A DNA stretch of 5,937 nt, from IMG/VR virus record IMGVR_UViG_3300045988_003949; one strand, 5' to 3'. The translations under genes and the position numbers were made by a program. The stretch is from a virus. Positions 1,281 through 5,937 of the stretch are shown here, one piece after another; positions within the stretch are counted from its first letter, which is position 1, and the number at the start of each line of letters is the position of its first letter. Below the pieces are notes generated by a model. The model did no database searches and was not told the DNA's origin. It saw only the letters and a list, made by a program, of their open reading frames with translations.

Positions 1281-1671
1281 ACGATACGAAGAAGGGCGAG
1301 AGCCCTTCTTTTCCAATCCTGGAGAAAAAATCTTAAAGCAATACGTTTGGACGAAGGACGAAAAAGGGGAAGAAGTGCTGCAAGAAACTGCACCAATCGA
1401 TATCCAGCAGGAAATTGAAAGCTATGCGGATGAATGTGATATCAAAAACATTGTCCGAAAAGCGAGTTTTGACCCGCAGTTCCTAAAAAGCCTGTCAGAG
1501 GGAGCACTAAACGGAACGGAAGTAGATATCACCGAGTTTCCGCAGAACATTCACGAGTATCATCGCATGATCGCAACAGCACAGGCAAACGCCATGAAAC
1601 TAAAAGAGCTGCAGGAAGCAGCAAAAGAAGAGCCTAAAACAGAGCCTAAAACAAAGGAGGAAGAAAAGTGA
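1273..1671 (+). CDS. Hypothetical 132-aa acidic, helical protein with a Lys/Glu-rich tail (KEEPKTEPKTKEEEK). From its position and composition it is a candidate internal scaffolding (VP3-like) protein.
   Basis: ATG 1273 lies 8 nt after GGGAGGG (1258-1264). The 1153 start in the ORF track would add a basic N-terminal extension in another gene's frame. The stop TGA 1669-1671 overlaps the VP1 start as GTGA. The function is inferred only from synteny (immediately upstream of the capsid gene) and composition. Confidence 0.6.
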   Translation: MNKRYEEGREPFFSNPGEKILKQYVWTKDEKGEEVLQETAPIDIQQEIESYADECDIKNIVRKASFDPQFLKSLSEGALNGTEVDITEFPQNIHEYHRMIATAQANAMKLKELQEAAKEEPKTEPKTKEEEK

Positions 1672-3341
1672 ATCGAAACAATGAACGGCACTTTAACCAG
1701 ATTCCAGAAGTGAAAGCGAGCCGAACAAGTTTTAACCGCGACCAAACGGTTTTAACAACGTTCGACTCCGGCAAGCTGATCCCATTCTATGTTGACGAAG
1801 TATTACCGGGTGATACATTCAGAGTAGACACGTCAGCAATCATCCGGATGACAACGCCAAAATATCCGGTAATGGACGATGCATTTATCGACTTCTACTA
1901 CTTCTATTGTCCTAACAGAATTCTGTGGGACAACTTCAAGTACTTTATGGGAGAAGTAGAAGCAACACCATGGATGCCAGCAAAAGAATACGCAGTACCA
2001 CAAATCGTAATCAAAGGAACGGAGGCAAAACCAGCACCAGATGAAAAATCCATTCTAGACTATATGGGAGTGCCGACTAAAATCAAAAAAGAATTTAGAA
2101 TTAACGCACTACCCGTAAGAGCGTACGTAAAAATTTGGAATGAATTTTTCAGGGATGAAAACGTAGATAACAAAGCAACACTAAGAACGGACGATGCAAA
2201 CGTAGCCTACGAATTCGGAAATGAAACTTGGGTACAGCAAGCAGAAGACGACGCCTACACCGGCGGAAACTTGTTACCTGTAAACAAATTCCACGACTAC
2301 TTCACCAGCTGTCTGCCTTATCCTCAGCGCGGGCCAGCGGTAACACTGCCGATGGAGGGAAACGCAATGATAAAAGGATTCAACGACCAAAAACTTAAAG
2401 ACCAAACAACTCTATATGCAAACAGCTTTTTTGACGGAAAAACAACACCAGCCAACATAAAAGACAAACTGTATGCAATCTCAACATACGGAGGTGAAGA
2501 ACAAGCATATGTAAACGTCGGAACAGGAGAAGGGGACGTCCATAAAGTAGTGTACCTGGGCGCAGACCTCGGGTCAGCCACAGCAACAACCATCAACGAC
2601 CTGAGAAAAGCCGTAGCAGTACAACAGTACTATGAAGCGCTGGCACGAGGTGGCAGCAGATACCGCGAACAGGTACAAGCACTGTGGGACGTGGTTATCA
2701 GTGATAAAACCGTACAAGTGCCGGAATACCTGGGCGGCGGCAGATATCATGTCAATATCAACCAAATCGTGCAGACCAGCGGACAGCAGACAAACAACGA
2801 CACGCCAATTGGCGAAACTGGTGCAATGTCAGTAACGCCAATCAACGAAAGTAGCTTTACCAAATCGTTTGAAGAGCATGGTTTTGTAATCGGTGTATGT
2901 TGTGTGCGGCACAATCGCAGTTACCAGCAGGGACTTGAACGTTTCTGGAGCAGAAAAGACAGGCTGGACTACTACGTGCCACAGTTCGCAAACTTAGGTG
3001 AACAGCCTGTAAAAAAGAAAGAAATCATGCTCACCGGCGATGCAAAGGACGAAGAAACGTTCGGGTACCAGGAAGCATGGGCAGACTATCGCATGAAACC
3101 TAACCGGGTATCTGGCAAAATGAGAAGTAATGCGGTAGGAACACTGGACTTCTGGCATTATGCAGACTACTATACCCAAGAACCAACACTGTCGCAAGAC
3201 TGGATGGAAGAAGGCAAAATCGAGATTGCACGCACGCTCATCGTGCAAGATGAGCCTCAGTTCTTCGGAGCTATCCGCATAGCAAACAAAACCACAAGAC
3301 GGATGCCATTGTACAGTGTACCGGGCTTGTACAAACTGTAA
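1668..3341 (+). CDS. VP1: Major capsid protein VP1 (Microviridae F-protein family), 557 aa.
   Basis: The N-terminus HFNQIPEVKASRTSFNRDQTVLTTFDSGKLIPFYVDEVLPGDTF is the hallmark Phage_F capsid signature. Its size is typical of gokushovirus VP1. The GTG start lies 7 nt after AAGGAGG (1654-1660). Confidence 0.93.
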   Translation: MNRNNERHFNQIPEVKASRTSFNRDQTVLTTFDSGKLIPFYVDEVLPGDTFRVDTSAIIRMTTPKYPVMDDAFIDFYYFYCPNRILWDNFKYFMGEVEATPWMPAKEYAVPQIVIKGTEAKPAPDEKSILDYMGVPTKIKKEFRINALPVRAYVKIWNEFFRDENVDNKATLRTDDANVAYEFGNETWVQQAEDDAYTGGNLLPVNKFHDYFTSCLPYPQRGPAVTLPMEGNAMIKGFNDQKLKDQTTLYANSFFDGKTTPANIKDKLYAISTYGGEEQAYVNVGTGEGDVHKVVYLGADLGSATATTINDLRKAVAVQQYYEALARGGSRYREQVQALWDVVISDKTVQVPEYLGGGRYHVNINQIVQTSGQQTNNDTPIGETGAMSVTPINESSFTKSFEEHGFVIGVCCVRHNRSYQQGLERFWSRKDRLDYYVPQFANLGEQPVKKKEIMLTGDAKDEETFGYQEAWADYRMKPNRVSGKMRSNAVGTLDFWHYADYYTQEPTLSQDWMEEGKIEIARTLIVQDEPQFFGAIRIANKTTRRMPLYSVPGLYKL

Positions 3342-3379: not shown

Positions 3380-4243
3380 ATGGGGGCATTATCAGGATTC
3401 TTAACAGCGCTAAACGTAGCAGGAAACGTAGCAAATACGGTCGGAACAATCGCCGGAGCAGCAAAAAACGTTGCTGGAGCTTTTGGCGGATGGGGTCAGA
3501 CAGGCAACAGCCAAAGCCAGGGCGGAAGCACAAGCCAAGGTGGTGGACACTCAGAGAGCGGAAGCCAAGCAGGCACAAACATTCAGCAAGTAAACGACTG
3601 GCTAAAACAAGCATACGCATACCAAGGGCAAGAAGCAGCCATGCAAGGTAAATACAACAGTCAAAGCATGTTAAAACAGATGGGTTACAACACCTTACAA
3701 GCAATCATGCAGGGCGTATATAACCACATTGAAAACAGCGTAGCGATGAACTACAACAGTGCAGAGGCACTAGCAAACCGTGAATGGCAAGAGCACATGT
3801 CAAGCACAGCATACCAGCGTGCAGTTGAAGATATGAAGAAAGCCGGCTTAAATCCGATTTTGGCATTTTCTAACGGAGGTGCAAGCACACCAGGCGGATC
3901 TGCAGGAACAATTAGTGGGGCAAGTATGGGACTTGCAAGCAGTAGCGCACTAGGAGTAAGCAGAAGCGGTGGATTTGTACCGAATGCATACTCAAGTTCA
4001 AGCTGGAGTAAAAGTGACTGGTACAACGCCGCAGAAAGCTGGCAGCAGATGCTCAGTTCAACACACATGACGCCATACGGACTGCAAAAGGCGCTTACAG
4101 AAGTAGGAAGCAACACAAGCAAAGCCATTACGGATGCAACAGCAAAGGCAGAAAAGGGCGCAAGACAGAGCAGAAGCATGAAACCGCAAGATAAAACGGG
4201 AAGCTACGGAGAAAAACGAAAGCCGGGTGATTATTTAAAATGA
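3380..4243 (+). CDS. VP2: Minor capsid / DNA pilot protein (VP2, phiX H-like), 287 aa.
   Basis: A Gly/Ala-rich, low-complexity N-terminal half (MGALSGFLTALNVAGNVANTVGTIAGAAKNVAGAFGGWGQTGNSQSQGG...). It sits immediately downstream of VP1, as in gokushoviruses. Its stop overlaps the VP4 start as ATGA. Confidence 0.75.
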   Translation: MGALSGFLTALNVAGNVANTVGTIAGAAKNVAGAFGGWGQTGNSQSQGGSTSQGGGHSESGSQAGTNIQQVNDWLKQAYAYQGQEAAMQGKYNSQSMLKQMGYNTLQAIMQGVYNHIENSVAMNYNSAEALANREWQEHMSSTAYQRAVEDMKKAGLNPILAFSNGGASTPGGSAGTISGASMGLASSSALGVSRSGGFVPNAYSSSSWSKSDWYNAAESWQQMLSSTHMTPYGLQKALTEVGSNTSKAITDATAKAEKGARQSRSMKPQDKTGSYGEKRKPGDYLK

Positions 4244-5259
4244 GTTGTTACAAGCCATTAATAAGGCTGTACAACCCGGAAAACAAAGATATAAGCGGGC
4301 GGGTGTATTCACTTGCCCGCTTTTCTGAAATATCGGGAAAACAGCTCAAATATGAAGATTTGATGTACAGAAAAAACATCATGTTGATACCATGCGGGCA
4401 GTGCATCGGATGCAGAATCAGACAAAGAGAGGACTGGACAACACGAATAGAATTAGAAGCACGAGACTATCCAAGAGAAGAAGTATGGTTTATAACATTA
4501 ACCTATGACGATGATCATGTACCAGGCATGATAGTAAACACAGGCGAAATCATGCGAAAAGTGCAATACGTCTGGAAACCGGGAGAGAAGCGTCCTGAAA
4601 GCGTCCAAACTTTGCTATATCCTGACATTCAAAAGTTCTTAAAACGCCTCAGAAAGGCTTACAGGGGCAAATTACGCTATTTTGTGGCAGGAGAGTACGG
4701 AGAACAGACAGCAAGGCCACATTATCATATGATACTGTATGGATGGGAACCAACAGATCTAGAACACTTGTACAAGATACAGCACAACGGATATTTTACA
4801 AGTAAATGGCTAGGAAACCTATGGGGAATGGGTCAAATACAGATAGCACAAGCAGTACCGGAAACATATAGATATGTTGCAGGGTACGTGACGAAAAAAA
4901 TGTACGAAATTGACGGTCAAAAGGCAAACGCGTACTATGAACTAGGGCAACAAAAGCCTTTTGCATGTATGAGTCTTAAACCAGGCTTAGGAGATCACTA
5001 TTACCAAGAGCACAAAGAAGAGATCTGGAGACAAGGCTACATCCAATGCACAAACGGCAAGCGCGCACAAATTCCACGCTATTATGAAAAAATGATGGAA
5101 GCTGAAAACCCACAAAGATTGTGGAGAATTAAACAGAACAGACAGGCGGCGGTAATCGCGGAAAACCGGCTAAAATACGAAAACGCAGACTTTGAAGAGC
5201 AGTGTAAAACGAAAGAGAGAGTGACAAGGAAGCAAATGAAGAAGAGAGGGACACTTTAA
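4240..5259 (+). CDS. VP4: Rolling-circle replication initiator VP4 (phiX A-like HUH endonuclease), 339 aa.
   Basis: Cys cluster PCGQCIGC (nt 4393-4413). RCR motif 1 WFITLTYDD (about 4486-4512). Motif 2 RPHYHMILYG, with the HUH histidines at about 4720-4728. Motif 3 YRYVAGYVTKK, with the Y-x3-Y-x2-K catalytic tyrosines at about 4867-4899. Confidence 0.93.
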   Translation: MSCYKPLIRLYNPENKDISGRVYSLARFSEISGKQLKYEDLMYRKNIMLIPCGQCIGCRIRQREDWTTRIELEARDYPREEVWFITLTYDDDHVPGMIVNTGEIMRKVQYVWKPGEKRPESVQTLLYPDIQKFLKRLRKAYRGKLRYFVAGEYGEQTARPHYHMILYGWEPTDLEHLYKIQHNGYFTSKWLGNLWGMGQIQIAQAVPETYRYVAGYVTKKMYEIDGQKANAYYELGQQKPFACMSLKPGLGDHYYQEHKEEIWRQGYIQCTNGKRAQIPRYYEKMMEAENPQRLWRIKQNRQAAVIAENRLKYENADFEEQCKTKERVTRKQMKKRGTL

Positions 5260-5278
5260 CAGTGTCATGGTGTCACCT

Positions 5279-5310
5279 AGCCCAGTACCTATCAAGTAAG
5301 GTACTGGGCT
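5279..5310 (+). other. Perfect 11-bp stem-loop: AGCCCAGTACC, loop TATCAAGTAA, GGTACTGGGCT.
   Basis: Exact inverted repeat at 5279-5289/5300-5310 with a 10-nt loop, 20 nt after the VP4 stop. The loop motif TATCAAGTA recurs at 5350-5358. Confidence 0.6.
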
Positions 5311-5370
5311 ATTGCCATTTAAAGGCTCCATGTATCGGACCATTCAGTTTATCAAGTAGATATACTTTAT

Positions 5371-5413
5371 CGCGCGTGCGCACGCGCGCGAAGCGCGCAC
5401 GCGCGCACGCGCG
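5371..5413 (+). other. GC-only imperfect palindrome and hairpin: CGCGCGTGCGCACGCGCGCG, AAG, CGCGCACGCGCGCACGCGCG. The stem has 18 of 20 positions paired and is built from alternating purine/pyrimidine.
   Basis: Read directly. The two 20-nt arms are nearly reverse-complementary with a 3-nt loop, and each arm is a strictly alternating Pu/Py tract that could form Z-DNA. Confidence 0.6.
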
Positions 5414-5563
5414 GCTCTTGGGCGCTATTGTTCGCAAGCTCACAAGCGCCGTATAATATATAACTTGTTGTAGGAGTAGTAGTAGAGATAGTGGAAAAGT
5501 TGAAAAGTACTAAAATTTAACGTTAAAGCGTAAATAAAAAGCAAAAAACAATGTTAAAAGTTT

Positions 5564-5592
5564 TGTTGAAAACTTGTTGAAATGTTGAAAGT
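5564..5592 (+). repeat. Iteron cluster A: three copies of TGTTGAAA(A/T/G) at 5565, 5576 and 5584. Related copies lie at 5499-5507 and 5553-5560.
   Basis: Direct repeats of the GTTGAAA core spaced 8-11 nt apart. Confidence 0.6.
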
Positions 5593-5625
5593 CCGTCAAA
5601 ATGACGAAAATCATTGTGCAACTTT

Positions 5626-5665
5626 TTGTTGAAAACCTGTTGAAAGTGTTGAAAGTGTTGAAAAC
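5626..5665 (+). repeat. Iteron cluster B: four tandem copies of TGTTGAAA(A/G)(C/T), with GTTGAAA cores at 5628, 5639, 5648 and 5657.
   Basis: TTGTTGAAAACC TGTTGAAAG TGTTGAAAG TGTTGAAAAC. The last three copies repeat every 9 nt exactly. Confidence 0.65.
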
Positions 5666-5785
5666 GCGCACAGCGCTAAAAAGGAATGGACCAGCCGAGC
5701 TCCGCATGCGCTACGCACGGCAGGGCGCTAAAGCGCCATCAAAACAAAGGGACAAAACCGGCTACTGATATATCAATTAAAATAC

Positions 5786-5814
5786 TTGACAATTGTAAAG
5801 AAATATGCTATAAT
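5786..5814 (+). promoter_or_regulatory. Consensus sigma70-type promoter: TTGACA at 5786-5791, exact 17-nt spacer, TATAAT at 5809-5814.
   Basis: Both hexamers match the consensus 6/6 with 17-bp spacing. An SD-like AGAGAGGTAAGG and an ATG at 5840 follow downstream. An AT-rich, UP-like tract and the palindrome TGATATATCA (5766-5775) lie just upstream. Confidence 0.7.
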
Positions 5815-5839
5815 ATAACCAGAAAGAGAGGTAAGGATC

Positions 5840-5937
5840 ATGAAAAACTGTTACGAATACACAGAAAACAAAAAAGTAAAGTTCTACCGTTCAAGCATTG
5901 ATGGGCAAATCCGTTTCCCTTACACTTTCAGCAAAAA
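5840..5937 (+). CDS. 5' part of a 61-aa hypothetical protein that wraps the contig junction (MKNCYEYTENKKVKFYRSSIDGQIRFPYTFSKK...). It continues at window bases 56-143.
   Basis: ATG at 5840 lies 7-9 nt after the GAGAGGTAAGG SD and directly downstream of the consensus promoter. The frame stays open across the terminal repeat and ends at TAA 141-143, immediately before the peptidase RBS. Confidence 0.55.
   Translation, partial: MKNCYEYTENKKVKFYRSSIDGQIRFPYTFSK
5883..5937. repeat. Second copy of the 55-nt terminal redundancy, the overlap left by assembling a circular contig.
   Basis: Identical to bases 1-55. Confidence 0.9.

Follow-up and report, generated by a model that had tools for sequence, protein, structure and literature searches.

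IMG/VR record IMGVR_UViG_3300045988_003949 (5,937 nt, referred to here in its full length as the window) is a complete circular gokushovirus genome with a terminal redundancy of 55 nt and corresponds to IMG/VR contig 3300045988_001400. The genes listed here all lie on the + strand; those assigned with Pfam encode an M15 peptidase (148-549), ORF5/VP5 (1032-1280), a scaffold protein (gene end at 1671), the F-type capsid protein VP1 (1668-3341), and Rep/VP4 (4240-5259), and VP2 is encoded at 3380-4243. After VP4 comes a 580-nt non-coding stretch (5260-5839) that harbors an array of GTTGAAA repeats. We analyzed this array and found that it forms part of a conserved non-coding element of 214 nt (5452-5665), delimited by nhmmer and BLAST mapping and by alignment, which resembles a small bacterial replication origin and which we term a putative mini-oriC.

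Anatomy and conservation of the element

The original prediction, made from the letters of the window, had described at least eight copies of GTTGAAA in about 170 nt, gathered in two clusters, with the last three copies 9 nt apart. All of this is borne out: eight exact copies lie on the + strand within 165 nt (at 5499, 5565, 5576, 5584, 5628, 5639, 5648, and 5657) and form the two clusters, the last three are exactly 9 nt apart, and the sole further GTTGAAA of the window is found at 945 on the - strand. The longer word TGTTGAAAR is exact at 5564, 5583, 5627, 5638, 5647, and 5656, and a 39-nt direct repeat is present (5544-5582 and 5607-5645). Successive copies of GTTGAAA follow one another at 66, 11, 8, 44, 11, 9, and 9 nt; the proposed spacing of one helical turn is thus an approximation of an actual 8-11 nt. 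Two single copies had also been reported, at 5499-5507 and 5553-5560, of which the first is an exact GTTGAAA at 5499, whereas the second is degenerate (GTTAAAAG) and reads GTTGAAAG in most relatives.

A shuffling test had been suggested as a way to refute the array. In the whole window, GTTGAAA was found 9 times against 1.43 expected, a number matched in none of 200 shuffles. Moreover, none of 20,000 local shuffles that preserve dinucleotides (regions 5495-5665, 5460-5670, and 5260-5839) reached 8 copies, the means being 0.12-0.48 and the maximum 4. Because the shuffles never reach this number, the local A/T-rich composition does not explain the array, and an origin by chance or composition is excluded both globally and locally.

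Read on the other strand, the repeated word is a probable DnaA box. There, TGTTGAAAA becomes TTTTCAACA, which departs from the stringent consensus for such boxes, TTWTNCACA (PMC7561715), at a single position, and the GTTGAAA words read (T/C/A)TTTCAACA on the complementary strand, which is the box variant used in Clostridia-type chromosome origins. In relatives, the homologous columns carry TGTGGAAAA or the perfect TGTGGATAA, the main variation being T or G at box position 4. For example, the box at 5564 is a perfect TGTGGATAA (the consensus TTATCCACA) in 22 of 113 relatives and TGTGGAAAA in 8 of them; the box at 5627 reads TGTGGAAAA, a perfect match to TTWTNCACA, in 53 of the 113, and the box at 5490 reads TGTGGAAAA in 32.

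The limits first given to the array (5495-5665) proved too narrow, as they leave out an AT-rich tract (5452-5463), a block of TAG triplets (5471-5485), a spacer, and a further box (AGTGGAAAA, 5490-5498) that belong to the same unit (5452-5665). The unit starts with the AT-rich tract TATAATATATAA (5452-5463), which overlaps the invariant 9-mer AACTTGTTG (5462-5470); together, they constitute a candidate DNA-unwinding element (5452-5470) in the position of the AT-rich region in the B. subtilis and Ruminococcus oriC. The 22 nt located 5' of the triplets have a mean of 75% A+T across copies, and ACTTGTTGTAG is nearly unchanged in 23 representative aligned copies. The triplets themselves, TAG GAG TAG TAG TAG (5471-5485, + strand), form a DnaA-trio block (3'-GAT-5' in the published notation). 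A five-triplet block of the type TAG-NNG-TAG-TAG-TAG is present in 108 of 112 unique copies, with A or C as the middle base of the second triplet, and nearly every copy has TAG as each of the three triplets on the side of the boxes.

A 4-nt spacer, AGAT (5486-5489), occupies the site of the bacterial "GC cluster"; relatives have GGAG, GCAA, AGGC, or GCAC, the mean G+C is 60%, and the length of 4 nt is kept in about 103 of the 112 unique copies. It is followed by two abutting DnaA boxes of the same orientation (5490-5506), the nearer one being AGTGGAAA(A) at 5490-5498 and the farther one AGTTGAAAA at 5498-5506, corresponding to B. subtilis box 7 and box 6, respectively. The TTWTNCACA orientation of both reads on the - strand, and 12 nt separate the farther box from the trios in about 103 of the 112 unique copies, a distance also seen in Firmicutes. 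Four more boxes on the - strand form cluster 1 (5552-5591), i.e. a degenerate one at 5552-5560 (TGTTAAAAG) and those at 5564-5572, 5575-5583, and 5583-5591. Another four form cluster 2 (5627-5665, - strand; 5627-5635, 5638-5646, 5647-5655, and 5656-5664, spaced by 11, 9, and 9 nt). The element therefore holds ten boxes in a single orientation and in three groups (2 + 4 + 4). When diverse copies are aligned, the same order emerges: an AT-rich box, the invariant ACTTGTTGTAG-NN-GTAGTAGTAG, two GTTGAAA-like words directly after it, and two clusters of four words.

The spacer between the clusters (5592-5626) is constant in length and variable in sequence, apart from the semi-conserved ATTGTGCAAC. 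It holds the two palindromes that had been pointed out earlier, CGTCA-aaa-TGACG at 5594-5606 and AATGA-cgaaaa-TCATT at 5600-5615; their positions are correct, but their sequences are not kept across clades, the spacers of other clades holding different palindromes, e.g. TGCACAAA-acca-TTTGTGCA. The duplication of AACTTGTTG at 5462-5470 and 5571-5579 had also been located correctly. The copy next to the trios is invariant in all clades, and the 9-mer recurs within box cluster 1; possible roles are those of a degenerate box, of a site for a helicase loader, or of a contact for Rep.

Non-conservation in related genomes had been named as a further ground for refutation; in fact, copy number, order, and spacing are all conserved. 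The element is present, as one copy per genome, in all 74 close relatives that were retrieved by a VP4 search and have enough sequence. A distant clade was sampled via VP4 only, and hence without bias toward the element, which was found in 49 of 55 loci; the remaining 6 end before the upstream DNA, so the proportion is 49 of 49. A pattern scan gave 77 microvirus contigs with VP4 36-100% and VP1 41-98% identical to those of the window, all of them with a full-length element. Overall, the genomes of gut gokushoviruses that keep the element number well over 150, and their sources include humans, pigs, and monkeys as well as other animals. In a search of a phage collection it was confined to microviruses (49 records), and a search of plasmids gave no sequence similar to it.

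Of 113 unique copies, 109 measure 212-216 nt. Identity stays at 85-91% in the motif blocks of genomes where VP4 is 36-57% and VP1 41-56% identical, compared with 42-70% in the spacers. The constraint falls on short words at fixed distances. Since the conservation of the motifs far exceeds that of the phage proteins, a conserved host protein, evolving much more slowly than they do, would fit as the partner.

The element may face either way and may lie downstream or upstream of VP4. In 6 of the 74 close relatives (L021, L045, L048, L064, L070, and L073) it is inverted between the same GC-rich flanks (e.g. at 3721-3937 in L021, 2182-2393 in L045, and 2272-2483 in L070), and in the most distant clade it is inverted and fills the VP2-VP4 spacer (3408-3617 in L146). 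Inverted and forward copies share only 77-80% identity, which indicates old fixed rearrangements; we rejected an active invertible switch for the same reason. The element thus tolerates both orientations and more than one location, as would be expected of a site that acts on double-stranded DNA, and this independence of orientation argues against a strand-specific single-strand origin.

Comparison with bacterial origins

In bacterial chromosomes, the DnaA-trio 3'-GAT-5' is the single-strand binding motif of DnaA (Pelliciari 2021, PMC8287927; PMC7561715; Richardson 2016/2019). The published rule for a basal unwinding system (BUS) allows the box up to 2 mismatches and the spacer up to 16 bp, and it asks for 3 or more NAN trios; distances peak at 10-13 bp from the better box, with a GC cluster of about 4 bp (Pelliciari 2021, PMC8287927). 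In the supplement of the same study, the BUS strand of B. subtilis reads TAGTAGAAGTAATAGTAG-GGCC-TGTGGATT-TGTGGATAA, that of C. acetobutylicum ...TAGTAGTAG-GGAG-TGTGGATT-TGTTGATAA, and that of C. botulinum (TAG)6-GGCT-TGTTGATA-TGTTAATAA, the farther box of Firmicutes being 12 nt from the trios (Pelliciari 2021 supplement, PMC8287927). The corresponding module of the window is TAGGAGTAGTAGTAG-AGAT-AGTGGAAA-AGTTGAAAA, and that of a related phage (L087) is (TAG)5-GGAG-TGTTGAAA-TGTTGAATA. These two, the three bacterial modules, and that of a Ruminococcus metagenome-assembled genome (MAG, described below) align without gaps.

Taken feature by feature, the box at 5490-5498 (AGTGGAAAA) has 2 mismatches to TGTGGATAA, within the limit of 2 to TTATCCACA, and the TGTGGAAAA of relatives has 1. 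The second, abutting box (5498-5506, AGTTGAAAA) has 3 mismatches, where up to 4 are allowed. The spacer of 4 nt falls in the range of 0-16 bp, although the AGAT of the window is below the mean of 60% G+C. Five trios, where at least 3 are required, stand on the strand that runs 5' away from the boxes (5471-5485, + strand), and the AT-rich region beyond them is represented by TATAATATATAA (5452-5463), which is shorter than the 27-mer of B. subtilis. Only the chromosomal context beside dnaA and dnaN is missing, since the neighbors of the element in the phage genomes are VP4 and accessory genes, or else VP2 and VP4. Judged by every sequence feature compared, the element appears BUS-like without being a chromosomal oriC.

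The element shares with the BUS of B. subtilis (incC boxes 6 and 7 with their trios) and with Clostridium oriC2 the abutting boxes, the usually GC-rich 4-nt spacer, at least five trios, and AT-rich DNA, and it shares with Clostridia-type oriC the box variant with T at position 4 (TGTTGATAA / TGTTGAAAA). Unlike them, it resides in a 5.9-kb single-stranded DNA (ssDNA) phage genome, not between dnaA and dnaN, all its ten boxes point one way, its AT-rich tract is short, and it has the additional invariant AACTTGTTG.

A scan of bacterial genomes with GTTGAAANNGTTGAAANNGTTGAAA matched at least 120 loci, those listed being mostly irrelevant. One locus, in an uncultured Ruminococcus MAG (L291), was the best match to the profile of the phage element among the 120 loci listed. 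Its box cluster fills the 1346-nt spacer between genes for a 469-aa DnaA and a 365-aa DnaN (Pfam), with 16 copies of TTTTCAACA and 8 of TTTTCCACA, mostly in one orientation. A triple with 9-nt phasing, CTTTCAACAGTTTCAACACTTTCAACA (4889-4915), has the same phasing as phage cluster 2. About 150 nt before dnaN, the spacer reads TTTTCCACA-GTTTCAACA-CCCC-CTACTACTACTACTA, i.e. (CTA)5, followed by AT/T-rich DNA; the position of the GC cluster thus reads GGGG, where B. subtilis has GGCC. The profile aligns collinearly to 5660-5500 of this locus, from the trios through both clusters (E = 4.6e-13). The collinearity is stronger evidence than the E-value, because repeats inflate the score. By sequence, the phage element matches the end of oriC nearest dnaN, and it has 214 nt against the 1.3 kb of the MAG oriC.

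A second Ruminococcus MAG (Ruminococcus sp. RUG11850, L257) has dense clusters of TGTTGAAAA and TGTGGAAAA in both orientations (520-650 and 800-1130), with neither a trio block nor, within 8 kb, dnaA or dnaN (the neighbors encode DUF6512 and a SpoU methylase). These clusters could belong to a two-part origin, as its other half, or represent DnaA-box clusters of a different kind.

Based on these matches, our best guess is that the phage host belongs to the Clostridia and is Ruminococcus-like. R. albus 7 is listed with two TTTTCAACA boxes at its predicted module, and the canonical sigma-A promoters and strong Shine-Dalgarno sites of the phage are compatible with a Clostridia host. Among the first 120 genome matches listed, we found no microvirus contigs in bacterial assemblies that could identify the host.

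Flanking sequences and a candidate VP4 origin

The sequence CTTG/ATA is the nick site of the phiX174/pC194 Rep family. Directly after the VP4 stop codon, the window has GGTGTCACC and a 13-bp hairpin with the loop ATCAAGTA (5269-5311); its reverse complement is a hairpin with the loop TTACTTGATA followed by TAGGTGACACC. Because it carries the CTTG/ATA word, this hairpin, rather than the array, is the better candidate for the VP4 rolling-circle origin. Very distant microviruses keep it at 90-93% identity. In this gut clade, the full ACTTGATA...TAGGTGAC module is on the - (non-coding) strand, which raises the question of which strand the virion carries. The same hairpin module is found on the coding strand in microviruses of Ciona (MH572423) and Apis (MH992199), and SpV4 (M17988, 1640-1672) has AACTTGATAA-N9-TAGGTGA on the + strand. 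A second TATCAAGTA is located at 5350-5358 of the window.

Left of the element, the window has an imperfect palindrome made only of G and C apart from its center, CGCGCGTGCGCACGCGCGCG-AAG-CGCGCACGCGCGCACGCGCG (5371-5413; arms of 20 nt, 90% complementary), and a related CGCGCACAGCGC lies right of the element (5666-5680). The two G/C tracts are likely the joints of the inversions described above. In ssDNA they would fold into a very stable hairpin and may therefore serve as an origin for the complementary strand. The Chi sequence of Lactococcus, GCGCGTG, occurs in the tract as well. The fold of the whole spacer, computed as DNA from a single sequence, is significant (z = -4), which is due to the flanking hairpins and not to the array.

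At the 3' end of the non-coding stretch, a consensus promoter, TTGACA-17-TGnTATAAT (5786-5814), is followed by a 61-aa open reading frame (ORF) that crosses the end of the window. In close relatives, the promoter precedes small genes that differ from one genome to another (5786-5937 plus 1-146 in the window, 4080-4330 in L001, and 1530-2010 in L002); this variable "cargo" slot sits between the conserved spacer and the M15 peptidase gene.

Alternative explanations and proposed role

It is likely, from the architecture, the conservation, and the match to a bacterial oriC described above, that the element serves as an oriC-like module, to which host DnaA binds once the phage DNA is in its double-stranded replicative form. 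The original prediction had placed the array among binding sites for initiators, repressors, or host factors, including DnaA-box-like arrays and origins; the initiator and origin class stands, and the specific identity would be a mini-origin for host DnaA. The main alternative to an opening of the strands is that the element only titrates DnaA on the multicopy replicative form, in a datA-like manner, or uses DnaA as a transcription factor. Ten boxes on many copies of the replicative form could bind much DnaA, some 120 nt separate the array from the strong promoter downstream of it (5786-5814), and the independence of orientation would fit equally well. However, a sponge needs neither five trios located 4 nt from abutting boxes nor an AT-rich tract, and these parts, with their spacing, are the most constrained of the element; a datA-like site would be a box cluster lacking an adjacent unwinding module. 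Neither the distance of the element to a promoter nor its orientation relative to one is conserved. We therefore consider titration or regulation alone to be unlikely. Control of the promoter at 5786-5814, which had been proposed for the array, is in turn an unlikely conserved role, because the element is inverted or located between VP2 and VP4 elsewhere.

VP4, two small phage proteins, and host extracts had been suggested for binding assays. A second alternative views the repeats as iterons for a protein of the phage, be it the VP4 Rep, VP5, or some small basic protein, of the kind known from the origins of plasmids and of circular Rep-encoding single-stranded (CRESS) DNA viruses or from R1 parC. 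This view can draw on the two clusters of direct repeats that flank a palindrome-bearing spacer, and on the AACTTG at 5462 and 5571, which recalls the phiX174 nick sequence CAACTTG/ATA. Yet the repeats remain 85-91% identical and show no co-variation with any phage protein, VP4 and VP1 having the identities given above, the same words fill a bacterial dnaA-dnaN spacer, the small genes adjoining the element differ between relatives, and its inversion is hard to square with a strand-specific rolling-circle origin. Host DnaA is the likelier binder, given that the repeats are near-invariant while VP4 falls to 36%, and iterons for a phage protein are very improbable; the lack of co-variation with VP4 in particular indicates that the element is not a Rep-iteron origin.

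Another host regulator that also acts at origins is a poorer candidate still. One such regulator is Spo0A, whose 0A box, TGNCGAA, is found overlapping DnaA boxes in the oriC of B. subtilis as well as in phage phi29. TGTTGAA differs from this box at one position, the likely hosts are Clostridia, and direct repeats with periods of 9-11 nt would suit Spo0A or a response regulator of the OmpR family. The mismatch nevertheless hits the CG core of that box, the repeats of relatives drift toward TGTGGATAA, the consensus for DnaA, and not toward TGTCGAA, and the architecture of trios and spacer is specific to DnaA, making such sites highly implausible. In an informal comparison, sites of the dif/Xer, CtsR, Rex, CcpA, LexA, IHF, and WalR/SaeR types resemble the repeats at best to within one mismatch and leave the TAG block unexplained.

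Similarly hard to credit is a piece of host origin DNA that is devoid of function or provides homology for recombination with the host chromosome. Its collinearity with the end of a Ruminococcus-type oriC nearest dnaN would be accounted for. However, the element is universal, single-copy, and constant in length, with strongly constrained motifs and weakly constrained spacers in clades whose VP4 is 36% identical; a stretch of 160 nt at about 70% identity offers little homology to recombine with, and no prophage was seen at the Ruminococcus dnaA-dnaN locus.

A small RNA gene or a short peptide gene is scarcely conceivable. A 55-aa ORF (5601-5768) reads the repeats as VENLLKVLKVLK, some GenBank relatives are annotated with a hypothetical protein there, and a TATAAT lies at the left edge of the element. 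However, neither start codon nor reading frame of this ORF is conserved across clades, and it is therefore probably not a gene; substitutions fall at all codon positions, and reverse-strand ORFs were rejected as coding sequences on the same basis. As to an RNA, the region gave no Rfam match at E <= 1, RNAalifold on 21 diverse copies gave 0.0 kcal/mol and no pairs on either strand, and there is no conserved -35 box or terminator. The ORF (MTKIIVQLFVENLLKVLKVLK...) renders box cluster 2 as a heptad-like peptide. We also rejected a promoter array with TTGAAA as -35 boxes (one weak 9/12 match inside the array and no conserved -10 box) and a long-range pairing of 5495-5502 with 5619-5626, both sides of which vary independently in relatives.

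Several known systems resemble the element in part. The phiX174 origin (the 30-bp gpA site CAACTTG/ATA... together with a PriA site) is also a Microviridae replication signal with AACTTG, but it is a single strand-specific site for the phage Rep with neither repeats nor DnaA boxes; of such an origin, the element has only AACTTGTTG (5462 and 5571), and its orientation is not fixed. E. coli datA and DARS and the DnaA-box clusters of B. subtilis are dense groups of boxes outside oriC that could modulate DnaA or divert it from the origin, like the element, although they do not have the module of trios and AT-rich DNA at a fixed distance that is its most conserved part. The origins of pSC101, F, R6K, RK2, and P1 oriR belong to mobile replicons that enlist host DnaA by means of boxes beside an AT-rich region, but their Rep iterons are of 17-22 bp and DnaA is accessory, whereas the element has no separate iterons and has a chromosomal layout. 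The injection-stop region of phage T5 is likewise reported to be non-coding and rich in DnaA boxes and repeats, the role proposed there being in DNA injection (bioRxiv 10.1101/866236). Unlike the microvirus, T5 is a large double-stranded DNA phage, and the region is not known to have a BUS-like trio architecture.

Some observations weigh against an origin activated by host DnaA. Most boxes of the window have 1-2 mismatches to TTWTNCACA, and they are thus expected to be individually weak sites. The AT-rich tract has only 12-20 nt before GC-rich DNA begins. The invariant AACTTGTTG has no counterpart beside the Ruminococcus oriC trios. The binding of DnaA, the unwinding, the loading of a helicase, and any effect on phage replication are steps that we infer from the DNA sequence. 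A requirement for DnaA is not known in rolling-circle microviruses, phiX174 among them. SpV4, phiMH2K, and Chp2 gave no comparable module, a weak negative since the strict scan also missed the GAG-bearing block of the window itself; a general gokushovirus feature was rejected on this ground. Finally, among the bacterial matches listed, only two were informative, both of them dense clusters of TGTTGAAAA and TGTGGAAAA in uncultured Ruminococcus MAGs, and TTTTCAACA-type boxes are also listed for Chlamydophila and Porphyromonas, in the table that includes R. albus 7, so the host assignment is only a best guess.

If the element is an oriC-like module, the incoming ssDNA would first be converted to the double-stranded replicative form, on which host DnaA-ATP would bind the ten boxes. 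DnaA would oligomerize from the box pair (5490-5506) onto the TAG strand (5471-5485) and then melt the AT-rich DNA (5452-5470), allowing the host replicative helicase, with primase and polymerase, to be loaded onto the phage circle. The absence of a conserved fold agrees with such an action on duplex DNA. The opening could be used for theta-type amplification or maintenance of the replicative form, for lagging-strand priming during rolling-circle replication, for both, or for exposure of ssDNA; we favor the loading of the helicase for replication of the replicative form.

In the phiX174 scheme, the phage Rep nicks, a host helicase unwinds, the PriA primosome primes, and DnaA has no role. In the gut clade, the replicative form could behave as an oriC-type minichromosome under the control of host DnaA, giving an integrase-free, plasmid-like carrier state in Clostridia with DnaA as a determinant of host range. 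Given the nick-like hairpin on the non-coding strand, the origins for rolling-circle replication and for DnaA might moreover be distinct modules, and the virion might carry the strand antisense to the genes. We regard these readings as possible, but doubtful. The original prediction knew of no such array in Microviridae, and our literature search agrees, as it returned no paper linking DnaA boxes or oriC to Microviridae genomes.

With its 214 nt, the element would be a compact natural substrate for studying DnaA in vitro and a candidate minimal replicon from which genetic tools for poorly tractable gut Clostridia could be built, and it would mean that origin mimicry by phages can be detected by sequence alone. 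It also offers a sequence-based clue to the host (Clostridia, Ruminococcus-like) of phages that have never been cultured. If the proposed role is true, a very abundant group of human-gut phages has adopted the initiation system of its own host, and episomal maintenance would be a possible account of the long-term persistence of microviruses in individual guts.

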